The notes under the pieces are model-generated. The model did no database searches. It was given only the letters and a program-made list of their open reading frames with translations, and was not told where the DNA came from. 64,000 bases of DNA from Elsinoe ampelina (Eukaryota), in assembly GCA_010093995.1 (NCBI GenBank), contig ML992509.1, forward strand, positions 1,015,850-1,079,849, written 5' to 3'. Below are positions 1,724 to 19,766 of this stretch, in pieces (position 1 is the first letter of the stretch; every line of letters starts with the position of its first letter). The position numbers and the translations under genes were made by a program.

Positions 1724-2102
1724 TTGACTCGCGTATGCTATGGGAGGGCATTGTGCGCAGCCTAGACAAATATAGACGAATGCATAATGACAACAGCCCG
1801 CTAGACGCTAGAGCTCACCCTTCAATTTACGCATTGAGGCTGAAGATGTCCTCAAGTCTCAGAACCAAGCAAAGTGCTCCGTCTCATTGGCAGATGATCA
1901 TTGTGCTAGGAACCTTCCACCTTCACCTTCACGTCTATTGCATCACTTCGCGCTAAGTCCAGTAAATCCGACGCCACCAGGCGGCGATCGCTCGCCGCCC
2001 GGCAGAAAGCTATCATGCTTGACATGCATTTCATTTTCACGTTCTTTTCTCCATCGCATACCGATTCACGTGCGGTCACGTACACCTGCATGAGCCTGAA
2101 CG

Positions 2103-5100
2103 ATGGCGTCAACGGTCCTTGCAGGCCGGGTAATTCGTTCGGAGGACGTCCGATCCAAAAGCGTTCGCGTCAGCCCAGACGATGAACAACTCCGTGTATT
2201 CCACTCGTCAATTCTAAATCCACAAGCTGAGGAGCCGCCTCGAAAACGGCTCAAGATTGAACATCAGTCCGAAGACGAAGGTATAACGCCAAAACATCAA
2301 GAGCAGCCCTCCATCCCGATAGCTCAAATTACTCTTCATCTCCTTGATGCTCCCGAAACTCCAAGCATCTCGCCACTATCACAAGGTACTGATGGAGTAG
2401 AAATCACCTTCGTCCAATTCGAATCCCGGGGTCAAGGACAAGCGACCTTGAAGCTCTCGAGAGCCGATGTGAAAACCGCGAAGGCTGAAGTCGAGGTCAC
2501 CCTAGATCATGCTATCGACACGAGGACTCTTGATGACCTAGGTCGTGTTGCGCAACTCCAGCGTCGTGCGAAATCTTCAAACTCATCTGCAGTCGCTTAC
2601 TCTCGAGTGGAGCTCATGAGATGCCCGGCAAAGAAGAGCGGACAACCCGGAAAAATGCATTTCGCGCTCAACTGCACAATATACTGGCCGGATGGTGCCG
2701 CTGGGCCGCCGGAAACGTCGCAGAATGTGCTTGACCGGGAGATTCTTGTGCGCTACTTCGCGATTCCGGTCTTTCTGAAGCAATTGGAACGCGGAGGTCG
2801 CAAGAAAATCGTCCATGAGAAGACAGTGACGCCGCAAGAGTTCTACGATGCTGTCTACGTTCCCGACAAGTCACTCCCGGTTCCTCATTCGATCGATCAA
2901 AGTGGTATACATGCAGATCTGTACCCGTTTCAAAAGAGAGCCGTCACCTGGATGTTGCAACGAGAACAAGCTGACGTAGTCGCCTCGGCGACCACCGGGC
3001 CACAAGTCACCCCAAATGGTTCGTGGCGTCAGGTCCATGATGCCACCGGTGCCACTTGCTACATCAGCGATCTCGAGTGTGTTCTGATCTCTCCGGAGGC
3101 CTTGCAACGCCGATCTGATATCACAGGCGGCATTCTATCCGAAGAGATGGGGTTGGGCAAGACCTGCGAATTGCTTGCATTGATTTGCACCCATAAGAGA
3201 TCACCGAGCTCAGCTCTTCAGGCAGGTCTCACTGCTAGTAAGGCTACCTTGGTCGTGACGCCCACCACCATTCTCCAGCAGTGGAAGGATGAGATTACAA
3301 GACACGCTCCACACTTGCGATGGGCACATTACGAAGGCATGTCATCACTTACAAAGACCATCAAGAAAAACAGGCAGACAGAACAGGATGTGGTGAACTC
3401 TTTCAGCGACATTGACATTGTCCTAGTAACCTACAACGTTCTCGCGAGTGAGATTCACTTCGCTGTAGATCCACCCGAACGTGGACTTCGGCGCAAGAAC
3501 TATGAACAGCAACGTCCGAAAAGTCCATTAGTGCAGCTCGAATGGTGGAGAGTGTGTCTGGACGAAGCACAAATGGTCGAGTCAGGAGTAAGCAAAGCAG
3601 CACAGACCGCCTCACTCATTCCCAGACAAAACGCATGGGCCGTGTCCGGAACGCCAGTCAAGAAAGATGTCCAGGATCTGCGTGGATTGCTGATATTCCT
3701 TGGGTACGAGCCATTCGCTAGCTCTTCGGAAGCCTGGAAGCGACTAGTCACTTACCATGAGACGTTTGACGCAGAGTTCAAGGATATTTTCGGCAGCATC
3801 GCCTTACGCCACACAAAAGATCGCATCCGAAGTGAACTCCGCCTACCCCCGCAGCGACGAGTGGTTGTTACAATGCCCTTCACTACTATCGAAGAGCAGA
3901 ATTACACGAACCTCTTCGAGCAGATGGCTGAGGAATGTGGTCTTCTTACCGATGGCTCTCCTGCATCGGGTCTTTGGGATCCAGAAGATGCCCGAACGGT
4001 CGAGAAGATGAGGGAATGGCTTGTCCGACTGCGACAAACCTGCCTCCATCCGCAAGTCGGCTCACGCAATAAGCGTGCGCTAGGAAGATCTGGTGGCGGA
4101 CCACTGCGGACTGTGGAAGAGGTGCTTGGAGTCATGATCGAACAGAATGAGACTGCCATCAATACTGAGGCTCGCATGTCGGTCACCACACTGTGCCTCA
4201 AAGGTCACATCATCGCCAACGCCAAGAACATCGGCAATCGAGCAGAGCAGGCTCTCAAGTACTATCGGCAAGCGCTCCAGCAAGCTGAAGCTTTAGTCAT
4301 AGACGCTCGCGACGAACTAGCTAAGCTGCCAGCCCAGAACCCAAAGGAGGTAGCTATCGAGGATGACAACGATGAAGATTCTCCGGAACGCAAGAAGCGA
4401 GGACAGCTTCGCAACCATCTCCGTAATGTCCTCGAGCTGGAACATATGTGCCAATTCTTCATCGGTACGGCTTACTTCCAGATGAAGTCGGCTGACGGCA
4501 TCGAGGAGAATGGGGATCGATGGAATGAACTCGAAGTCGACGAAGTCAAACATTACGATCTTGCAAAAGTCATTCGTCGTGAGATACTGCTCGAGACTTC
4601 ACAACGAGCTGAGGCCATCATGACCAAAGTTCGCAATGCTAATGCAGAGCATATCGGAGATGGTCTTCCGTCTACCCTGGACTTCGCATCTTATGGTGGC
4701 ATTGAAAGTCAGAGACTTGTGGAGAAGGCAGACCGATTGTCAAGCATTCTCGAGCGTCAGACAGAGCTCTTAAAGGATTGGCGGACGAAGATCGTGGATC
4801 TTCTTGCGAAACAACTGGTCGATGTCGAGGACAATGAGATTACTGGAGATGAATACGAAGACAGTACCAAGCAGCAAGAGGATCTCTATGCATATTTTGA
4901 TGCATACAGAGCCGTGGTTGCAGACCGTGAAACTTGCATCACCGGTCAAACAAACACGCTTGTGAACCACGAAATGACGCAGCTTCGCAAAGACTTGCGC
5001 CTACGGGATCTCGATGATGAGAGAGAAGGAAGAGAACCGCCGCCATCTCGCGAATTCACGCGCGGCTTACTCAGTCAAAGGGATAGCGTCAAGCAAGAAG

Positions 5101-6635
5101 GTGATGCAATCCTCTCGCTTCGAGGTCTCATCGGTGAGGCAAGGACCACCGAGGGCAACCTACAATGGGCCGGCAACGAGAGCGCCCGCAGTCGAGGCGA
5201 AGTTGCGCTTGTCAAGAAGTTGATGAATCAGCTGCAGGCGATGAGCGAGGCTTACTCCAAGCTGCAGCTTCGATTCGAAAAGGATCAAGAACTCTTCAAG
5301 AATTCCATGAATCAGAGGCTGGAGTTCTACCGTCAGCTGCAGCAGCTGTCTGATACTGTGGCTCCATGGAGGGAAGAGCAAGATGAAACACTGGATCTGC
5401 GAGAATTCGATGCCGCCTCCATTCGTTTGAACAAGACAGAGACATCATTGTCGACTTTGCGTTCGAAGCGTCGCTTCCTACTTCATCTTCGAGAGCAGTC
5501 AAACGACGAGGCCGAACGCATCTGTGTCATCTGCCAGCAGAATTTCGAGCAGGGCGTCTTGACAATATGTGGACACCAGTTCTGTAAGGACTGTATCAAC
5601 CTTTGGTATCGAGAGCACCGTACCTGCCCGGTTTGCAAGAGGGGCCTTAAATCTGTCGATTTCCACAACATCACTTACAAACCCCGCGAGCTCAGAGCGC
5701 ACGAAGAGATCCATCCGACTGCAGATTCTGCGGACGAAGGCTCGAGCTCGTCGACTAGCACACCTGATCCAGTTGGTAACACAAAAATTTACGACAGCAT
5801 GGCGGCATCGGATCTCACAGCCATCAAGGCCATCGATCTACCGTCGAACAGATCATTTGGTACCAAAATTGACACCATCTCTCGTCACCTTTTGCACATT
5901 CGTCGCGCAGAGCCTGGAAGCAAAACACTGATCTTCTCCCAGTACCGCGACTTTCTATCTGTCTTGTCTTCTGCTCTGTCGACCTTTGGCATCACCTATG
6001 TCTCTATCTCGGCAAAAGACAGTATCACAAAGTTTCGTGAGGACCCCAGCATCGAAGTGTTTCTGCTGGACGCAAAGACCGATTCGTCCGGTCTCAATCT
6101 GGTCAATGCGACCAATGTCATGCTGTGCGAGCCGTTAGTCAACCCTAGCATTGAATTGCAAGCCATCGCGCGTGTGCATCGAATTGGTCAAACCAGAGCG
6201 ACCAGTGTATTCATGTACCTTGTTAACGGCACGGTGGAAGAGAGCGTGTACGAGGTTAGCGTTAAGCGAAGGCTGGAGATCATGCATCGTTCGAGAGAGG
6301 ATAAGTCAGGAAGCCGGAGTGCAAGCCGCGGCACCACACCTGCGCTCGGAGGAGAAGTGGACAAGGCCGAGCGATTGGAGATGCAGTCTGAGGGAATGGA
6401 AAAGCTGCTCGGCAAAGGCAAGAGTGGCGGCGAGAATGTTAAGGCGGAGGACCTATGGAAGTGTCTCTTCGGCGTGGCAAGCAGGCAGGTGACTGTGAGG
6501 GAGAACAACCTTGTGGTGGACGGAGAAGATGTGAATAGCTTCGTCACTGCTGCTGAAGGTGGCGCTGCGAGAGACGAGGTGGCTAGGTTCGTGAGAGCCG
6601 GTGCAGCTGACCAGAGACGTGAGGGAGGGTCGTAG
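2103..6635 (+). CDS. IRC20: SNF2-family helicase / RING E3 ubiquitin ligase (Irc20/SHPRH-like)
   Basis: LYPFQKRAVTWM, GGILSEEMGLGKT, WWRVCLDEAQMVE, AVSGTP, RING (CVICQ...CGHQFCKDC...CPVCK), and helicase C-terminus SGLNLVNA...QAIARVHRIGQ. Confidence 0.9.
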   Translation: MASTVLAGRVIRSEDVRSKSVRVSPDDEQLRVFHSSILNPQAEEPPRKRLKIEHQSEDEGITPKHQEQPSIPIAQITLHLLDAPETPSISPLSQGTDGVEITFVQFESRGQGQATLKLSRADVKTAKAEVEVTLDHAIDTRTLDDLGRVAQLQRRAKSSNSSAVAYSRVELMRCPAKKSGQPGKMHFALNCTIYWPDGAAGPPETSQNVLDREILVRYFAIPVFLKQLERGGRKKIVHEKTVTPQEFYDAVYVPDKSLPVPHSIDQSGIHADLYPFQKRAVTWMLQREQADVVASATTGPQVTPNGSWRQVHDATGATCYISDLECVLISPEALQRRSDITGGILSEEMGLGKTCELLALICTHKRSPSSALQAGLTASKATLVVTPTTILQQWKDEITRHAPHLRWAHYEGMSSLTKTIKKNRQTEQDVVNSFSDIDIVLVTYNVLASEIHFAVDPPERGLRRKNYEQQRPKSPLVQLEWWRVCLDEAQMVESGVSKAAQTASLIPRQNAWAVSGTPVKKDVQDLRGLLIFLGYEPFASSSEAWKRLVTYHETFDAEFKDIFGSIALRHTKDRIRSELRLPPQRRVVVTMPFTTIEEQNYTNLFEQMAEECGLLTDGSPASGLWDPEDARTVEKMREWLVRLRQTCLHPQVGSRNKRALGRSGGGPLRTVEEVLGVMIEQNETAINTEARMSVTTLCLKGHIIANAKNIGNRAEQALKYYRQALQQAEALVIDARDELAKLPAQNPKEVAIEDDNDEDSPERKKRGQLRNHLRNVLELEHMCQFFIGTAYFQMKSADGIEENGDRWNELEVDEVKHYDLAKVIRREILLETSQRAEAIMTKVRNANAEHIGDGLPSTLDFASYGGIESQRLVEKADRLSSILERQTELLKDWRTKIVDLLAKQLVDVEDNEITGDEYEDSTKQQEDLYAYFDAYRAVVADRETCITGQTNTLVNHEMTQLRKDLRLRDLDDEREGREPPPSREFTRGLLSQRDSVKQEGDAILSLRGLIGEARTTEGNLQWAGNESARSRGEVALVKKLMNQLQAMSEAYSKLQLRFEKDQELFKNSMNQRLEFYRQLQQLSDTVAPWREEQDETLDLREFDAASIRLNKTETSLSTLRSKRRFLLHLREQSNDEAERICVICQQNFEQGVLTICGHQFCKDCINLWYREHRTCPVCKRGLKSVDFHNITYKPRELRAHEEIHPTADSADEGSSSSTSTPDPVGNTKIYDSMAASDLTAIKAIDLPSNRSFGTKIDTISRHLLHIRRAEPGSKTLIFSQYRDFLSVLSSALSTFGITYVSISAKDSITKFREDPSIEVFLLDAKTDSSGLNLVNATNVMLCEPLVNPSIELQAIARVHRIGQTRATSVFMYLVNGTVEESVYEVSVKRRLEIMHRSREDKSGSRSASRGTTPALGGEVDKAERLEMQSEGMEKLLGKGKSGGENVKAEDLWKCLFGVASRQVTVRENNLVVDGEDVNSFVTAAEGGAARDEVARFVRAGAADQRREGGS

Positions 6636-7302
6636 ACCACTTCATGGTCATGCTTCACATGGCTGAGGGGGTTACTCGAGCGCCAGTCTCAGCCAGACAA
6701 GGGCTTTGTTGGGTTTCAAAAGGCGTTTCGCAGGACTAGATACCCATGCTTTACCAACAGTACTATAGAGCTCGTATGATACCTGATAGCATACTCCAGT
6801 CAACAACCACTTCCCCCTGCCCGCAACATCACTTCCCACAGCCCTAGACGCGCACGACGGACTTCACCACAGACCTCCCAATTTCGCAAGCAAACCAACC
6901 CATCGTGAAGTCAGAAATCCCCCCTCTTTTTCAGCCAATTCACCTCAATTCCCCGTACGTCCACTCCGTCCCGCCTCCGCCCTCAAAATAAAGTGCCTCA
7001 CGGTCCGCACTCCGCCCTGCCGTCCCTGTCCCCGCTAACGACTAGTAGCTCCATGACACATCCCTCGCACACCCACATGCCCGACCAACGCTAGCTCCAT
7101 CGAACAATCCCGTCCCCATCGACACATCGGATGCTTTTCGACGATGTCGACGCGTGATGATCCCGGGCTAGCGGCAGGGGCGCGAGGGAATACGATTGCG
7201 CTGCTCACCGCCTGCGCGACTGGGGAGGAGTCTTCGTCGATCAGCGATGCGCGTCGGGGCATGGGGCATGGGTGGGTTTAGTTTACGTTTTGACTGGGTC
7301 TG

Positions 7303-7337
7303 TATGGTAGTATATTTTTACACTTGTCGCAAAACTC
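7303..7337 (+). repeat. Left terminal inverted repeat
   Basis: TATGGTAGTATATTTTTACACTTGTCGCAAAACTC. Confidence 0.92.
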
Positions 7338-7534
7338 CTCGCGGCCGCACTCCGCATTAGGATAATCTCTTTTACTAAAAGGGTCAACTGCACCAATATT
7401 AATTATTATTGTATCGCATTAGATGTAAGTTAGTCAGCATTAAATTCTCTATCGTTTAATGTACATTTCATTATAAATCTCACATTAGTCGTTGCGTAAT
7501 TGTGCTCTATAATTTTTCTTAGCCTACATAAATA

Positions 7535-9200
7535 ATGCCTCGACTAGCGATTAATCTTAACAACTAGCAGCCGACAATTATAGAGTGGATATCTTTAGAG
7601 CGCTTTATAAGGGACGAAGTAGTTAAGAGGCTTTAAGAAGAGTATAGTATTACTATTAGTAGAGGTACTCTTATGTAATAATTAAAGAATTAGAGAGTAT
7701 TAGCCTATCTAAAGGTAAAGGACACCTTAGCGCTCCGCGACGATATATAGAGATACTTCTCCGATTACTATATCGACGACCCTTATATACTTAGTTATCT
7801 TTAAGACAATAGCTATAAACTTAGCCTAAGAGCTCTCTACTACATCTAGTAGGAGATAGGTCTATATAAGTAGGTAGGCTACAGCAACGACGACAAAGAG
7901 CATAGGGACGCTACACTACTAGAGGTACTATAGTATAAGTATAAGTAAGGTAGTATTAAGGCTTATAGTCGAGGGATAATATATATATATATATAAGTAA
8001 GGTATAATATTATTAGAATATATATACGATTCTAGGGGTCCGAATCGCTATACGAATCGCTAAATTATCTCGTAGTTACTATATAGCTAAAATCGCTAGG
8101 TTCCTCTATCTAGAGGATTTTAAGTACTACTGCTACTACGTACGAGTTAATTAGCCTATCTAGTATTCTCTAGGGCTAGATTTTATATAGTATCTAGATA
8201 CTCACTATAAGTTTAAGCATTAGGGGATCTAGATATATAGTGTAATTGACGCTTAGTTACAATAGCTTATCTAGATCTATTATAGTATATCTAGACGAAC
8301 TTAGCGCTTAGTTACTACTTAATATCTCGCTACTATTACTACTTAAGGCGTAATACTATTAAGGCTTATTATAGACTATAGTACTAAGACTATCTAAGTC
8401 GCTAATCTTTATTACGACCTCCGCCGAGAGATTAAGCCTATTATAGACGAGTCTAGAGGACCCTTAAGCTTTAAAGACTACTTTAGGTATAGTACCTTAC
8501 GCTCGAACTAGTAGATTAAGGTATACTAGAGCTAGTAGGCACGATAGCTAGACCCCTAGAGGGCTTATTTTATCGATCTAGTAGCTAATTAAGGATTTAA
8601 TGCCTCTTCTAAGGTAGATAGAATTACCTTCCTTATAGTCTATATACTAATTATATAGTAAGAGGTAGTAACCTTTACCTAGACCTATAACTACTAGAGT
8701 ATCTATAATTAGTTAAGGAGGAGGCTATAGACTATACTAGGGATACTAGAGCTTAATTATAACTACCTAGAGCGTTAAGGAGAGATATATAGTAGTATTC
8801 TACTACCGATTAAATTAGTTAAGGGATACTAGGAAGTAGTAGAAAATTTTAGTAAGCGACTTATAGATAGAATCGCCGACGAATCGCAAACTTATAGATT
8901 AATAGATATTAATAAATACCTACCTTATACTACTCTTTAGTAGTGTTTAAGGGCCCTTAAGATTAGTAGGTTTACCGATTTTAACGGTGTAACTATTTAT
9001 AATAATAGTAATAAAGTATATATTACTACTTACTAGTATCTCTATAATAAAGTCTAATTCTACTTCGTAATAGGTGTTAAGCCTATCCTATATAAATTAG
9101 ACCGTCTATATATACTAGATCGTAGTCGGTAGAGGTCGTTTACGCTATTAGAGTAATTTTTAAGGGTTTAGGAGAGGGAGGCTACTAGAATTACTAAGTG
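7535..9200 (+). pseudogene. RIP-mutated transposase: Clr5-like N-terminus + integrase-core (DDE) domain
   Basis: ATG at 7535 (MPR.AI.L..W). De-RIPed motifs LD(A)H(C)KF.HWGIQIY..IDAWSR at ~8194-8262, D(R)GTET at ~8373 and GTSRSNQ.IE.YW at ~8491-8530. Many TAG/TAA codons derive from TGG/CAG/CAA. 3' end approximate. Confidence 0.75.
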
Positions 9201-10276
9201 AATCGCACTAATAACTCGGCGTATCTACACTAGTAATTACTAATATAAAGAGGCGTTCCCTCGTTTATTTCGCATCCCTCTTCTACCTTATTTCTTTTCT
9301 ATTTATTATAGCTTTAATTACTAATATTTAGGTAGCTCTCTACCTAGTTACTCTAATAGCCTTCTCCTATAATAATATAATTAAGAATTATGTAAAGTGT
9401 AGATTCTACGACGTAATTAATCCTTTCTATCGTAGTAGTAAATAGCCTTTCTAGCGAGAATCGATAGCTACGCTAATCTCGTTATTATATAAAGTATTAG
9501 TCGTATATTAGTAAGTCGGTACTACGAGTTACAGCGATTCGACTCGCCTCCCCCTAGTCGTACTCCTCTCTATAATCCCCTTATTGTCGGCCTTATAAGC
9601 CTCGTCGTCGTCTTAGGGCTTAAGTAAGCCTATCGGCTATATTATTACTACCGCTAACCTTTACTATAATAGAGTAATAAAGCTACTAGCTACTACCTAT
9701 ATAGTAGCCTCGAAGTCTAAGGCTACTAGGCCTATAGCTCCTCTAGCTAAGAAGCTAAAGTAGTCGACGCGTATAGCTATCGAGATATAGAAGGTAACGC
9801 GTAGATTAATATTAGGTAGCGATCTAGTCTATAAGAAGGCTCTTCTTAATACCTATAATAATACGCTCTAGTTAGATACTATCCTCTCTACGATTTTAGT
9901 TAGCGATTTAAACTATCGCTACTAGCTACGTAACTTATTAGCCTATTACTCTAAGAAGGAAGCCTATTTCGATCCTTAGTAGTATAGTAAAGACATATTT
10001 AAGAGCTACGTAGACTACTACCTTATCGATAAGTTTAACTACTCTAATAAGCCTATCTAATTAGTACGAAATACTCTAGAAAGGGAGTACCTCAAGGATC
10101 TACTTAAGGCCTTTAGTACTACTAGTAGTAGTAGTAATAGGAGGTGTAACATTAAGCTTATATACGAGTGTTAGAGTAGTAAGGTTATAGACTAGCTAGC
10201 GGAGGAGGTGCCTATCTTCCTTAGGGCCCCTTTATCGAATTGTAGCTTAATCGCCTCTAAATTATATACTAGGGGC

Positions 10277-10372
10277 CTATCTCGTACTCTATCTCGCGCT
10301 CTATCTTACGTACTATCTTACGCCCTATCTCGCGCTCTATCTTGTATACTATCTTATAATCTATCTCGGTAC
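10277..10372 (+). repeat. 12-bp tandem repeat x8 (ctatctcgcgct-like)
   Basis: ctatctcgtact ctatctcgcgct ctatcttacgta ctatcttacgcc ctatctcgcgct ... Confidence 0.8.
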
Positions 10373-10423
10373 GCAAACTAGATATTATCTCGTCTATCTA
10401 GGAGATCTTATTATCTAGCTTAT

Positions 10424-10515
10424 AAACTAGATCGTAAACTAGATCGCGAACTAGATAATAAACTAGATAATTAACTAGATAACGAACTAGATTTCGACCT
10501 AGATCTTAACCTAGC
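10424..10515 (+). repeat. 12-bp tandem repeat x7-8 (raactagatnnn)
   Basis: aaactagatcgt aaactagatcgc gaactagataat aaactagataat taactagataac gaactagatttc gacctagatctt. Confidence 0.8.
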
Positions 10516-11329
10516 GCCCTCTTTAGCTTAAGAACGATCTAGTTAATTATCTCGCTACGTATCTAAGCGTCCTATTATTCGCTCTAATAAAGAGATTATA
10601 GCGTTAATTCGCGCTTACTCGCGGTCTATAATTAATATAAGGCTAAAGAAAATTGCTAAGCGATTCGGCCCTAATAAATTGCTATATAAATCGTTAATTA
10701 GTAGAATCTCTTAGTTCGAGAGGGAGTTTATTAACTATAACGCTAATACCTCTCTAGGCTTTACGCTAGCGCCGCTAGCTAAGATAACTAAGCTAAGTTA
10801 AGGGAGGATTAATATTAAGGACAAGCGGAGTTAGCTATTATAGATAGTAGATCTAAACTAACTACTAACCTCTTTTACTATTATAGATTTAAGCACTAGT
10901 AACTTTTAATAGATAGAACTAACTATAGTAACTAAATCTAGGAGTTAGAGCGCGTTTCCGACTCTAATACTATCTAACTACTTCTACGTCTTTAACTCTA
11001 TAGAGACTAACCTACTCTTAGAGAACTCCCTAAGCGCTATATCCGCCTCTACTACTACTACTACGTAACTAGAGTAGGTAAAAAATAGCTAGATTAATTG
11101 CTCTTATCGAGAATAATTACTAGATATAAATATTATATAGCTAGGAGATTTCTAGAGTAGCGCGCTAAGTAATACGTAAGTAGTAAGTATTAGGAGAAGT
11201 AGGTAGAGGACTAAGCTAATAGAGAAGATAAGATAAAAGGTAGATAGATAGTAAGAAAGGCCTAGATTTGCTCCTTAGGTATTATAATACAACTAAACGC
11301 TACGCTAATTATTATAGTTTATAATTATA

Positions 11330-12100
11330 AGTTCTTAGCTTTATTCTCTAATAGTACTAGTAACTCTCTTACCTCCTCTACTCCCTCTATCCTATCCCTC
11401 CTCTCCCCCTTATTCTCCTCTAGCTCTATAAGGGCTTTAAGCCTAGTAATCCTTACCCTCTAATTCTCTAGCTTACTTAGAGCCTTTACTAAAGCTATCT
11501 CTAAGTCTATAATACGTTTCTTTAGATCTATAGTCTCTTACGATTTAGCTTATAATTCCCTAGACGATTCGCTAGCTAGCGCCGAGTAATAATTCTTACT
11601 CTCCTTTACGTAGTACCTATATAACTTCCCCTTACTCTTATCCTTCTAGACTCGATATACTACTATATCTTAATTATCCTTAGCCTTACGACTATACTAT
11701 CGGCACAGATTTAGAGCCGGCTCCCTCTTCTCTATCTCTATAATCTTGCTAGCGTATACTATATAGTAGATACTAGTTAAGGTAATCTTCTTTACTTTAG
11801 TATTACTACTAGTAGTATCTAGCGTAAGGCGAAGAGTACGCTACTTATTATCTAAGACGTACTAGAAGTCTTACTCGTTAGTAGTCTTAGGGCAGCGCTA
11901 TTAGTTATTAAAACTACAAAAATCGTAAGTCTCTAAATTATAGATAGAATTATAGACGAATTATAACCCTAGGGATAATTAGATACTACTTATATAAGTT
12001 AGTTCTAGAGCTCTTCTCTAGCTAAAGCGGCAGTTCTTGCTATAGTATTAGCAGCTTACTGTTACTCGGCGGTTTAATAAGTCTGTCTTATAGGGGTAGT
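11330..12100 (-). pseudogene. RIP-mutated accessory ORF3: Cys6 zinc-cluster-like motif + coiled coil
   Basis: The minus frame de-RIPs to CR(Q)(C)SRKA...(C)RV(W)KDKSKGK(S)(C)(G)Y(C)VKESKN(C) at ~11705-11587, then the heptad segment IDLKKRIIDLEIAL.KALSKLEN. Boundaries approximate. Confidence 0.5.
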
Positions 12101-12454
12101 ATAAAGATTCTTCCCTAATATCTTAATATTAATTATATAATTACTTAGTAAGCTAGAGGTAAGCTTATCGTTGTAATTAAACGCTAGTTAGTGGTATCTA
12201 AGGCTGCTACTAGTAGTGGAGCTTAGACTCGATAGTTTAGTATATCCCTTATGTCTACCTAGTTACCTCTCTAGAGTAGTTAGTATAATAATAATATTAC
12301 TACTACTACCTTATACAATTGCACTAAAATTTATATCATTGTAATCAGCGTGATAAGAGAAGGCGATTGATATTAATTTCAATGCTATATAATGAATATT
12401 CGTGGAGTTATCCGAATGCGGTGATGTGACGCCAAAAAGGGGTTGGGCAGCCGA

Positions 12455-12489
12455 GAGTTTTGCGACAAGTGTAAAAATATACCACCGTC
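12455..12489 (-). repeat. Right terminal inverted repeat
   Basis: Reverse complement reads GACGGTGGTATATTTTTACACTTGTCGCAAAACTC. Confidence 0.92.
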
Positions 12490-14858
12490 GTCTGCTCCGC
12501 CGGGTGCGGACTCGGTTCCGCACGAGAAAGGGATAGTGTGCCGCTGGACGTTCACCTTAGACCTCAAGCTTTTTGGTCGGCGGGCGTGACGTGACGAAAG
12601 GTATTTGGGAGGCCAAGTCCATCGGGCAGGCTTCGGGGTCTAGTCTGTCACTGGACGCTGCTCTTCCGCGCATCTGGGCGACTGGTCGACATCGCGCAAG
12701 GCACGGGATGCTGTATCTCGATGCTCCATTTCGCGGGAATAGTACATTGAGCCAGCGTGTGTCGGAGCTGCATGCGGACAGGCTTGGAGACCGGCTTTTG
12801 CGTCGTATGGCGCTCGATGGCGAAGTGGCGCCATCGAGCGATGCACTTCAGGGATACTGGACTTGGTGTCGATCTATAGGCGCAGGATGTGAACATGGAG
12901 ATTACAGGATTGTGATCATTGGAAATGATCGTTTGACTGGAAGCGGTGGTTGCAGGGGATCAGAGTCATGCGCTTCTTGTCATGAGGTGAGATTCTATCA
13001 TGCCGTTCCTGTTTGCCACGATGGGTTAAGGGGTCTTACGATAGAGCGTGCAAGGATGCTGACGGTATTCGTGCTTGGTCATGCCGGGCTACTCCTCGGC
13101 GTCCTCGCGGTGCGCCAGGACGCTTGCAAGGGTGTTGGAAGACTCACACGCGTCATGCGAAAGTGCCTTGCGGGTGATTTTGGTCGCTATCATACCGGTG
13201 ACAAGTCCTGCAAGAAACAGCTTCCAGCCGATCGTCATGTTGGTGCCATGCCGGTACAGGATCGTGGCACCGTCTTGTCGATGTCAAGTATGGCCGAAAT
13301 CTCGTGCGAGCGTGTGAGTCTTGGATTACCACCAAAGTAAAGTGCAGACGTCATGGAGGCGCAGAGAAGCTACTTGTATGCAGATCGGAGACAAGAACGT
13401 TGGCGAATCATCACGTTGTGAGATGGAGCAATCGGTGTGAACCGCGTCCTCGTTGCTCGCGAGAAGAATCTCGTATAACAAACACACTGACCAAGGGCCT
13501 ACTCCCACCATAAAGCGCAAACGAAGCCTGGATAAACCAACTGAGAAGACGCGAAGCACATAGCTGCGAACGCGCTACACCGCTCCATCCCTGGAAGCTT
13601 GACGCTACCACGCTCGCTGCCGCTATGGGTCTTGCGCAGCAATCCAGTCCTTCGGCAAAGATTGCACTAGCATCCGGTAGGGGACTGCCAGGGCATTGCC
13701 GTCATATGAGCAAAGATCCTCTGGCATTAATTGCGTCGCCCGAAACGTCACACGGGTAGCAGATGGTGTTTCGTTGACAGCGCATTAATAACAGCGCATT
13801 CATGACAGCGTATCCGTGACCATGTAACATGGCGAAATAGCACTATTCCTGAGCGATTTGCAGGGGATTGTTTGTCGCTCTCGATACGATTGGAAAGGGA
13901 CTGACAGTATCTCGCAGCGACCTTGTTCCTTATCCACGACTTGAGACAGTGGGACGCGTCTTAGCATAAGATAGCTACAGTGGCTACAACGGATGTCACC
14001 TCAAAGCCTCGACCACAACTAGCAAGCGATAGAGCCGCGACCGTACCGTGACTGGAGTGCGATTTCACACACCCAGATCGCGATCCTTGTGACATCTACC
14101 ACTTTTCGCCCTCCCTTTTTCGCTCTCCCCTCAATAGTGTATACAAGAAATGCTCGTGACACAATCGCAATAGTGCTCGGAAAATGAGTGTCATGTATCG
14201 GGCAAGCAATGATTGGGCAGCGAAACGAGGTCCGTCATGTTGCAAAGACGGGAAATGGGAAACACAAGACGATTACATCCCTGATTGGTACAACGATTGG
14301 CTGTGGAGATGCAGCGAGAGGCGACTGATAGCTTAGCATGGATCTCTGTTCGATCGACGGGTCATTCCGAGTATATTTGTTCTGGAAAAGATCGTTTTGG
14401 TGGCGCTCTGGGAGCGTCAGTGTAGATTGGTCATTGCGGTCTGTCTTGTTCGGCGTCATAGGAAATATCCGATATGGATCATGGTCTTGAGGGGGGGGGG
14501 TGCGGGGTGCATTATTGTCATAGATGAGTTGGCCATGGAATTCTTGCAACGATGAACCCATGTAATTCAATGCTTTGGGTATCTGAGAATATACTACTGC
14601 ATGTGGTGAACCTTACTCCTGTGCGCCTTCAATGCTCCTTACTTGTTGTGGCCGGCCGTAAACCATTTGTCAATCGTTCAATCGCTTAGTCGTTTCGGCC
14701 TCCCATGATGGGCATGACAACAGTGGCGAACTGCGCCACGCCTGCCACACCTTTGGACGGTAGAGCCATAAGTTCTTCCGGTCTAGATTGACCTCGATCC
14801 TGACTGTGGTCCTCTGCGATCCTTCGCAGGAATATTCCCACGCCATGAGAGTGTTACC

Positions 14859-16488
14859 TCATCGTGGCTGGCGACGCTCGTCGGAATATCCATCTTTTTG
14901 AATGCGTATAGGTGGGAGGGAAAGGCTTGATCGCCGTTGGGCCAAATGGGGCCGCGCGCTAGGGATATTTGGCGGTTGCTGAGGAGGTCGTGATGACTGC
15001 AGGGAATCGGGGTGAGCATGCTTGCTTCCAAGACCAGGAGGAGGTGGAAGGATGCGGCTTCGAGGATCAACAGGAGAGGTAGGTGACGGTAAAAGAGATC
15101 TGCGGCGAATGTATGTGTCTTCCACTGGAATGATCCTGCTTGCCGCAGAGGCTGAAGTGGCATGGTCTGCTGCATATGGTGATGGTCCATTCAAATGACG
15201 GAAGCCTCTCTCTCCTGTGTTTCCATCCTGTATCAGAGACCAAGCCGTGCTTTGCTCCCGACAAGGAACGGTCTGGGAGTCCCAAGGTCTGTCGTCGATA
15301 GTGTGATCATGCTGTGGTCGATGGGAGGCGTGCATGAAGGAAGGTCGTGCGAATAGGGGTGACTGGGATTGGTTGGAGTCTGTTGAGATGCTCATTGTGG
15401 CAATGGTACTGTCATTATATGTGAATGCGTCCGTGAAGCTGGAGCGACTTGAAGGCGTGTGGCCTGTGACAGGAATGATATCGGTCCTCGGTGAAGTGCT
15501 GTCCAACATGACCTCATCACTATTACTGCGCGTCATGGACATCTCTGGATCACAGTCTGCCTTTGCTCGCTTCGATTCTGCCGAACCTCGTCAATTCTGG
15601 ACTGATCTCCGGAGCGGACGCGTTTCAATGCGCACCTTTCGTGTATTTCTCTCCATGTTTAGCCTTGAACTCGACAAGGTAGGTTTGGTAGATGTGGTAA
15701 TCCGGAGTCTTTTTGTATTCGGTGAGTTGAGCATAATAGGTCTCTTTCATCGCTTGTGCTTGTCGTTCGCAAGCTGCTCTCTCTTCTGGGTCTGGATCTT
15801 GCCATTGCTCGCCAACAATCTTTGCGATTTCAGTGAAGCTGAGATCCTGATCCTTGAGTCGCTCGCGTACCCCTGGGTTGACGAGTTAGTACTGTGGTGG
15901 TGCATGGAAGGTAGTTTGCGCACGGTTCGAGAAAATGACATAGGCTGATGGTGGTCTTTCAGGCGCATTCTCATCTGGCTTCTCAATGTCAGCGGCGTCC
16001 AGAAAGTGGGCATGTTGACTGACTTTTGGGTGCCGACGATACTTGCGCTTCTGAGGAGGTGCTTGATGAAAGGTAGGAGTTGTACCTTCCTGTGTCGTAG
16101 ATTCGGACCTGCATAATCTCGAAGGACCGTCATGTCGGAAGCTCCCTGGTGAGTGATTCAGCGTGTTCGTTGCCACGCCATCTGGGGCCTGCTGCTTCAC
16201 GTCCTGGATTGCCCTCTGTAATCGCTGAGAAGATCAGCATCCCTTGAATCTATCTCACTGCAGGATAAGCATGCGTACTCTTCGGTGTCCCAATTTGATG
16301 TCCAATGCAATCCTTCAGCATGTCAGTAGAGAAGTCAATTGAATAGTCGTAGTGTCAACGCACATGTCATCCTCGGTGATGTCGAGTAACTGGCACCACG
16401 TCTCAAATCCCTCGTTCCGCAGAATCTGGCAATATTGCTGCAGTCCTATGGACTGGAGGGACTGATCCAGATCTGTTGAGAAGACCAT
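14859..16488 (-). CDS. SAM-domain + HMG-box transcription factor
   Basis: Six exons splice in frame: SAM (LQSIGLQQY..IL..EGFETW..LLDITEDDM|IALDIKLGHRR|RLQRAI), KRKYRRHPK|PDENAPERPPSAYVIFSN|RVRERLKDQDLSFTEIAKIVGEQW (HMG box), then an S/P-rich tail. Confidence 0.88.
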
Positions 16489-19218: not shown

Positions 19219-19766
19219 NNNNNNNNNNNNNNNNNNNNNNNNNNNNNNNNNNNNNNNNNNNNNNNNNNNNNNNNNNNNNNNNNNNNNNNNNNNNNNNNNN
19301 NNNNNNNNNNNNNNNNNNNNNNNNNNNNNNNNNNNNNNNNNNNNNNNNNNNNNNNNNNNNNNNNNNNNNNNNNNNNNNNNNNNNNNNNNNNNNNNNNNNN
19401 NNNNNNNNNNNNNNNNNNNNNNNNNNNNNNNNNNNNNNNNNNNNNNNNNNNNNNNNNNNNNNNNNNNNNNNNNNNNNNNNNNNNNNNNNNNNNNNNNNNN
19501 NNNNNNNNNNNNNNNNNNNNNNNNNNNNNNNNNNNNNNNNNNNNNNNNNNNNNNNNNNNNNNNNNNNNNNNNNNNNNNNNNNNNNNNNNNNNNNNNNNNN
19601 NNNNNNNNNNNNNNNNNNNNNNNNNNNNNNNNNNNNNNNNNNNNNNNNNNNNNNNNNNNNNNNNNNNNNNNNNNNNNNNNNNNNNNNNNNNNNNNNNNNN
19701 NNNNNNNNNNNNNNNNNNNNNNNNNNNNNNNNNNNNNNNNNNNNNNNNNNNNNNNNNNNNNNNNNN
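19219..19766. other. Assembly gap (548 N)
   Basis: Run of N. Confidence 1.

Follow-up and report, generated by a model that had tools for sequence, protein, structure and literature searches.

What is the AT-rich block that interrupts the 64-kb stretch of Elsinoe ampelina contig ML992509.1 analysed here (hereafter the window, whose positions serve as coordinates throughout), and what did it once encode? The block occupies positions 7303-12489 (5,187 bp). It is best explained, at a probability of roughly 0.8, as a 5.2-kb cut-and-paste transposon of the IS3EU/GingerRoot kind that exists in several copies, resident in an ascomycete capable of repeat-induced point mutation (RIP) and inactivated by that process. 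The first question is whether the block has the ends of a mobile element, and four features answer it.

7298-7302, no strand: left 5-bp direct repeat GTCTG, a putative target-site duplication (TSD), read directly and the same as 12490-12494.
7303-7337, plus strand: left terminal inverted repeat (TIR), which starts TATGG and matches the reverse complement of 12455-12489, with weaker similarity continuing to about 7353.
12455-12489, minus strand: right TIR, which ends ...CCACCGTC, identified from the sequence as read, from a 28-nt core and from the contig ends of other copies.
12490-12494, no strand: right copy of the direct repeat GTCTG, read directly.

The left flank reads ...GACTGG and then GTCTG, after which the element opens at 7303 with TATGGTAGTATATTTTTACAC...; at the other side it closes at 12489 with ...GTGTAAAAATATACCACCGTC, and GTCTG stands directly outside. 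Of 35 positions compared between the left end and the inverted right end, 32 are identical. C/T or G/A transitions account for two of the mismatches; the remaining one, a transversion, falls on the terminal base, where the left end has T and the reverse complement of the right end has G. A perfect 28-nt core (7310-7337 at the left) occurs at exactly two places in the window, inverted and at the ends of the element, and in none of 100 dinucleotide shuffles. In a repeat search the arms extended to 48 nt at 83% identity (7306-7353 and 12439-12486). Identity of the two 5-bp flanks at fixed positions would arise by chance about once in 1,000 cases by hand arithmetic, and a 6-bp duplication fails, the flanks being GGTCTG and GTCTGC. 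The first-pass annotation had placed 35-bp inverted repeats and a GTCTG repeat around an AT-rich RIP desert at these coordinates, and sequence reading, shuffles and RIP indices bear it out to the base.

The composition of the block indicates how the element decayed. GC content is 0.35 within the element and 0.53 in the flanks. Eight open reading frames (ORFs) of at least 50 amino acids overlap 7000-12800, two of which straddle the right edge of the element, and the sole one lying wholly within it (10208-10381) has 57 amino acids. RIP is conventionally indicated by a TpA/ApT ratio above 0.89 and a (CpA+TpG)/(ApC+GpT) ratio below 1.03. The element scores 1.87 and 0.21, respectively, compared with 0.51 and 1.30 for its flanks. 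CpA and TpG together are depleted 11-fold and TpA is enriched 6.5-fold, so that RIP is near-saturated in the interior, fading over the outer 200-300 bp at each end. No other AT-rich block of the window shows strong RIP; outside the element, both index thresholds are passed by six GC-rich stretches of 500 nt, in each case marginally.

Two sequencing runs of one sample that contain the locus provide evidence of further copies, their contigs having been aligned to 6300-13500 at 80% likeness. The flanks are covered by one long contig alone. In run X1, 72 contig pieces fall on the element, of which 23 are at least 99% alike, one is 95-99% alike, 11 are 90-95% alike and 37 are below 90%; 48 of the 72 are thus under 95%. 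Differences between copies are dominated by transitions (C>T 126, G>A 124, T>C 98, A>G 85, and 8-29 for each type of transversion), an excess that is as expected of independently RIP-mutated copies. With both indices past their thresholds and transitions dominating between copies, the element shows the characteristics of a RIP-mutated repeat. Diverged pieces lie over the left (7497-8008, 68 differences) and the right (11234-11745, 55 differences) at 87-89% identity, and over the middle (9611-10282, 104 differences) at about 85%; the cargo is therefore common to the copies, and the 3' half belongs to the family. Two X1 contigs turn to unlike sequence directly past 12489, and other copies therefore stop at the same base. 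The first-pass annotation had allowed that its third ORF might be a nested, unrelated insertion, and these copies, which reach into the 3' half and leave at 12489, answer that concern; together with the ends and the RIP indices, they also uphold its description of a TIR transposon destroyed by RIP. Summed contig depth was 2-4 times that of the flank, a ratio not used as a copy number.

A transposase is recognisable on the plus strand in two parts.

7535-8011, plus strand: N-terminal part of the transposase, beginning at the ATG at 7535, with two helix-turn-helix (HTH) modules of which the first is Clr5-like; frame 7304+3k, 13 stops in 159 codons (phmmer, tblastn).
8012-8106, plus strand: frame-shifting gap between the two parts, a short intron or an indel, across which homology to P0001 and P0012 (two database relatives) shifts from frame 7304+3k to 7303+3k.
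8107-9147, plus strand: DDE core of rve/rva_4 type and a conserved C-terminal part; frame 7303+3k, 33 stops in 347 codons (tblastn, RIP-aware alignment).

When the plus-strand frame from ATG 7535 was searched by phmmer against 1.84 billion representative proteins with its stops written as X, 44 matches were obtained at an expectation value (E) of at most 1e-3, all falling within query residues 1-160 (best E 2.2e-17). Clr5 (PF14420) was found in 14 of the 16 matches scanned, and rva_4 (PF24764) and rve in four of the 16, the longer ones. The best match, P0001, is a hypothetical protein of Elsinoe fawcettii, and tblastn of this protein against the element aligned it in two frames at a joint E of 2e-39, with residues 1-158 matching 7535-8011 at 33% identity and residues 169-331 matching 8107-8595 at 39%. 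In the alignment to P0001 the catalytic aspartates are kept (GAT at 8197-8199, GAC at 8374-8376) and the column of the catalytic glutamate is now lysine (AAG at 8518-8520), a G-to-A change. The local alignments contain 33 stops, one of them opposite a gap, and 20 of the 33 stand opposite glutamine, tryptophan or arginine, as fits RIP, since a C>T or G>A change turns codons for these amino acids into stops. An aligner that sums scores over the possible pre-RIP codons raised the P0001 score from 243 to 440, with a shuffle null of 46 +/- 4, and by the same approach later exons of relatives match frame 7303+3k as far as 9108-9147. From the extents of the tblastn and RIP-aware alignments, the transposase gene is placed at about 7535-9150 with a frame change within 8012-8106.

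Structure prediction for P0001 suggests the same architecture. Its AlphaFold model, built from a 22-sequence alignment (mean predicted local distance difference test score, pLDDT, 73.8), has two three-helix bundles, modelled at a pLDDT of about 90, and behind them an RNase H-like core in beta-beta-beta-alpha-beta-alpha order. Foldseek of this model against the PDB returned TnsB, IstA, MuA and retroviral integrases (22 matches at E <= 1e-3), with low template modelling scores, as expected of a multi-domain model; the sequence profile of the transposase alone found no match in the PDB. Among NCBIfam models, that for IS481 transposases (NF033577) is matched by five of five relatives and that for IS3 transposases (NF033516) by four of five, in both cases over the DDE core, at E values of 4e-6 to 2e-12 and at 25-47 bits, far below curated cut-offs of 160-224 bits. 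No zinc-finger pattern was found before the DDE core in the relatives. Judged from its homologues, the plus-strand gene encodes a transposase in which a Clr5-like head precedes a DDE core of integrase (rve) type; the first-pass annotation had proposed such a gene, and phmmer, Pfam domains on the homologues and tblastn agree with it.

What occupied the 3.3 kb beyond the transposase is the harder question. The first-pass annotation had three genes, with ORF2 on the plus strand and a convergent ORF3, and the candidate features are as follows.

9215-11014, plus strand: candidate ORF2 of about 600 codons in frame 7304+3k, alternatively part of the transposase gene as a C-terminal extension (stop depletion, 3-nt periodicity).
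10277-10504, plus strand: two arrays of 12-nt tandem repeats with short hairpins, units CTATCTCGTACT and ATAAACTAGATA, in frame in candidate ORF2 (repeat search).
11250-12440, minus strand: candidate convergent ORF3 in minus frames 12487-3k (12440-11850) and 12488-3k (11850-11250), weakly supported (stop density, phase).
11340-11790, no strand: low-complexity tract, pyrimidine-rich on the plus strand (purine fraction 0.33-0.38), which draws spurious alignments.

Within 9215-11014, frame 7304+3k contains 28 stops in 600 codons (4.7%), and none of 200 dinucleotide-preserving shuffles (mean 46.5, minimum 36) reaches so low a count; the codon-aligned antisense frame shows no such depletion. The dinucleotides CA, TG and TA, counted together by codon phase over 9150-11250, are unevenly distributed in a constant register (170/91/143; chi-square p 6e-6), and this signal persists when the 12-nt repeats are removed (p 1e-3 and 2e-3). 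The phase method is founded on 13 of 13 host ORFs in which these dinucleotides are commonest across the codon boundary, and on the verified transposase it recovered the codon register of both parts and not the strand. The adjacent 12-nt arrays comprise about 7.7 and 6 copies, and other copies of the element align discontinuously at them (joints 10282>10439 and 10468>10698), which suggests that the number of repeats varies between copies. There is thus good evidence for an ancestral plus-strand ORF of about 600 codons, whether it stood as a gene of its own or carried on from the transposase.

For ORF3 the picture is fainter. Its stop densities, 6.1% in frame 12487-3k and 5.0% in 12488-3k, are the lowest or near-lowest and compare with 9-16% in most other frames, and its phase counts are non-uniform (p 9e-4 and 8e-3). 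Stop counts in a 200-codon window were not significant against shuffles, and given these weak statistics and a region that is partly of low complexity, ORF3 is a weak candidate. Of the three genes proposed, the transposase therefore stands, ORF2 has stop depletion and periodicity with no homologue, and ORF3 has the weak phase and stop signals just described, which leaves the three-gene proposal half supported.

Homology searches of the cargo gave little. The phmmer search with plus frame 7304+3k, continued to 11134, yielded no match to the ORF2 part among the 1.84 billion representatives. A word-based protein search for ORF3 with residues 1-230 of minus frame 12487-3k found none, frames 12489-3k and 12488-3k lying outside the large-collection searches, and PDB searches of three minus frames and of ORF2 produced coiled-coil noise only (E 0.2-1.2). 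Under RIP-aware alignment, neither 129 host ORFs nor 62 ORFs from metagenome loci L037-L062 gave anything real, unrelated host ORFs scoring 80-94 at 11340-11790. DUF3716 was tried as a cargo domain by pairwise tests and by RIP-aware profile tests in six frames and found no support, the profile score being 45.3 against a null of 44.0 +/- 4.8, with 31% of permuted profiles as high. Two coding-strand tests were dropped: an RY-hexamer coding model trained on 13 host ORFs, in which the antisense frame outranks the true frame on the verified transposase, and a purine-skew test, which does not separate strands in host genes.

Relatives in metagenomes offer a view of what such elements carry. An alignment built from four natural relatives was used to search metagenome contigs and located 62 loci that encode related transposases. 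Plus-strand ORFs continue after the transposase at loci L001, L003, L004 and L018, that of L004 having its own ATG at 2830, and a convergent DUF3716 ORF closes L001 (4565-5116, minus strand) and L007 (3585-4106, minus strand); homologues of the DUF3716 ORF are annotated as hypothetical proteins in Aspergillus species. From these ORFs, the layout of the first-pass annotation, with transposase, second plus-strand gene and convergent gene, therefore exists among relatives, with cargo differing between subfamilies. Another type of neighbour is present at L013-L015, where the transposase adjoins a large convergent DUF3638 gene and repeats beginning TATCCGT lack matching flanks. These three loci (L013 at 1834-15184) hold a Clr5-rve transposase, a convergent 1,514-amino-acid DUF3638/DUF3645 gene and a PD-(D/E)XK nuclease gene, with repeated TATCCGTRCCCC termini in nested pairs and without matching flank repeats, and they may represent a much larger cargo-carrying relative. 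An NDC10_II domain ORF (L002, 3159-4247, plus strand) and a MULE transposase fragment (L034, 633-1337, minus strand) also adjoin related transposases, which points to transposon-rich neighbourhoods. Among the loci no complete relative with both ends came to light, and none has a pair of TAYGG TIRs; tblastx against them gave five matches only, a low yield because alignment breaks at stops. Related loci have an intron after rva_4 profile position ~113-121, on account of which many public gene models are truncated, and the window copy has no intron at that position. The intron position or short models were noted in P0001, P0007, P0011 and P0012 and in L004, L007 and L011, the models ending soon after the third catalytic residue.

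The strongest competitor is that the element effectively had one gene: 9215-11014 would be a C-terminal extension of the transposase or a captured fragment, there would be no ORF3, and the remainder would be non-coding and repeat-rich. The absence of homologues for any cargo frame searched, the 12-nt tandem arrays, the partly low-complexity ORF3 region with its stop density not significant against shuffles, and a periodicity method that gives no reliable strand even on the verified transposase all accord with such an element. Against it stand the stop depletion of the 600-codon plus frame, unmatched in 200 shuffles and unaccompanied by antisense depletion, the ORFs beyond the transposase in L001, L004 and L007, including a convergent one, and the second gene that published IS3EU elements have, according to part of PMC12730594. 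We consider this alternative rather unlikely, though it deserves a hearing, and infer instead that the 3' 3.3 kb most likely once carried a second ORF on the plus strand, some 600 codons long, with perhaps a third, convergent one.

To which superfamily does the transposon belong? IS3EU/GingerRoot elements lack the HHCC finger, as do IS3 and IS481, and usually make a 6-bp TSD, as an excerpt of PMC10045372 describes them. For fungal IS3EU, excerpts of PMC12730594 and PMC10045372 give TIRs longer than 30 bp, termini TAYGG..CCRTA and a 6-bp TSD, and the former describes an alpha-kinase gene oriented opposite to the transposase gene, in some cases with a TET/JBP gene between them. Judged from its relatives, the present element has a DDD/E transposase of the IS3/IS481 type with no HHCC zinc finger, in which the first catalytic aspartate lies about 190-200 residues from the N-terminus, within the 100-300 of IS3EU. 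The 35-bp TIR of the element exceeds 30 bp, its left terminus TATGG fits TAYGG, and it has coding capacity beyond the transposase, possibly including a convergent gene. An IS3EU-type classification, set by published descriptions and not by a phylogeny of Repbase IS3EU elements, agrees with the type of transposase, with the length of the TIR and with the left terminus, and the superfamily guess of the first-pass annotation is in line with it.

Several observations weigh against this placement of the element and its cargo. The right end is CCGTC, not CCRTA, so that of the TAY..RTA ends expected by the first-pass annotation the left is present and the right is not, and the TA..TA rule holds at one end. 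The duplication, seen at one copy only, measures 5 bp where 6 is usual. Pfam on six frames of the element, with stops as X, reported no families, so that Clr5 and rve were assigned through homologues; as Pfam misses even the verified rve core, its silence is poor evidence on the cargo. When 643 ORFs from L001-L036 were aligned with 9150-12489 in a RIP-aware manner, none stood above the null bar one, and that ORF (score 85, null maximum 70.8) was rejected because it falls in the low-complexity tract at 11340-11790. No alpha-kinase, TET/JBP or DUF3716 gene was detected in the element, the Pfam and PDB searches that gave no alpha-kinase also missing the verified rve core, and the lack of a detectable alpha-kinase or TET/JBP gene is a difference from published IS3EU elements.

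The 5-bp repeat GTCTG and the rve-type core would also suit an integrase-like DDE element of the Ginger2/TDD type, whose founding members TDD-4 and TDD-5 make 5-bp duplications. Ginger elements are described, in the part of PMC2836005 consulted, as integrase-like DNA transposons with TGTNR termini and an H2C2 zinc finger, some with 5-bp duplications, and it is on these ends and this finger that the alternative fails: the element end is TATGG, not TGTNR, two HTH bundles and no zinc-finger pattern take the place of an H2C2 finger, and the nearest curated models are IS481 and IS3, making a Ginger2/TDD identity very improbable. That the block is no mobile element at all, just an AT-rich island with a chance inverted repeat, can be regarded as already refuted, since the presence of one copy only in the window is outweighed by the 28-nt inverted core placed exactly at the composition boundaries (0 of 100 shuffles), by the encoded transposase and by diverged copies in the same sample that stop at the same base.

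With an IS3EU-like transposon as the preferred reading, its nearest described counterparts can be compared. REP9/Styx of Zymoseptoria, a 7.9-kb, four-gene, IS3EU-like element that is RIP-affected in some species and has two genes with DUF3716 and an rve-type integrase that groups with IS3EU (excerpts of PMC8232023 and PMC10853768), shares with it an ascomycete host, bounding TIRs, an rve-type transposase, RIP and probably the multi-gene make-up. According to the same excerpts REP9-1 and REP9-2 carry DUF3716, as do the relatives L001 and L007. By description, REP9/Styx is active with 36-43-bp TIRs and a 6-bp TSD, whereas the present element is 5.2 kb long and dead, and the DUF3716 that lies beside the transposase within the TIRs of REP9/Styx was not detected in it. 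IS3EU elements with a TET gene, from rusts and Tuber indicum, have three genes, the middle one oriented like the transposase in three families and the far-end gene opposite, in the passages available of PMC12730594, an arrangement comparable to the one proposed here. There a TET/JBP dioxygenase is encoded in the middle and an alpha-kinase at the end; neither was detected in the element, a negative that RIP weakens. Bacterial IS481/IS3 elements resemble it in the DDE core, where its relatives match NF033577 and NF033516, and differ in that the element has a eukaryotic host, introns in its relatives and TA.. termini instead of TG..CA, with scores far below the cut-offs.

How novel, then, is the element? 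The first-pass annotation had suggested that it might be a family not yet described and had ranked it first among candidate novel systems in the window. That claim was overstated, because multi-gene IS3EU-like fungal elements are already in print, as parts of PMC8232023, PMC10853768 and PMC12730594 attest, and transposases combining Clr5 and rva_4 are common in public data (44 representative clusters, 62 metagenome loci). A literature search found no published link of the Clr5 domain or head with IS3EU or an integrase. We read the element as a new, inactivated IS3EU-like family member with two unusual traits: its 5-bp duplication goes together with termini TA...TC, and its 3.3 kb of cargo has no detectable relatives. 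A bolder proposal is that it is the fossil of an undescribed Pezizomycotina IS3EU-like lineage, characterised by a double-HTH Clr5-type head, a 5-bp TSD, TA...TC termini and two lineage-specific accessory genes (the 600-codon plus-strand ORF with 12-nt repeats and a convergent ORF) that lack detectable relatives among 1.84 billion representative proteins and would replace alpha-kinase, TET/JBP or DUF3716 cargo, and this we hold to be doubtful.

By analogy with other DDE transposases, a life history can be proposed for the preferred IS3EU-like transposon. The active element would have made a transposase of about 500-550 amino acids, with two N-terminal HTH modules, the first Clr5-like, and an RNase H-fold DDE core. 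The HTH head may have bound the ~35-bp TIRs, and the DDE core would have excised the element and joined it into a staggered target cut, whose repair would have left the GTCTG duplication. Once more than one copy of the family was present, RIP would have converted nearly every CpA and TpG to TpA, putting 46 stops into the recognisable transposase frames and probably turning the catalytic glutamate codon into lysine. Given those stops and that substitution, this copy is an inert fossil.

Within a gene-dense stretch the element forms a lone AT-rich island, inert and in an intergenic position. To its left, a 1,511-codon open frame at 2100-6632 (plus strand) has SNF2-related, RING-finger and Helicase_C domains in a Rad5/Rad16-like layout and stops about 670 bp before the insertion. 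The window also contains a run of 548 N at 19219-19766, an assembly gap that accounts for the apparent dip in GC at 19-20 kb, which is not a second AT-rich block. Rfam and tRNA scans returned no matches.

IS3EU is among the least documented superfamilies of DNA transposons, and few ascomycete members are in print. The copy described here shows that a transposase is recoverable even from near-saturated RIP if stops are read through and the scoring allows for RIP. It ties together a Clr5-type DNA-binding head, an IS3/IS481-like DDE core and a multi-gene layout, the last of which recurs in soil-metagenome contigs and an Elsinoe protein and resembles that of the pathogenicity-associated Styx. It is therefore useful for transposable-element annotation libraries and for how IS3EU-like elements acquire cargo.

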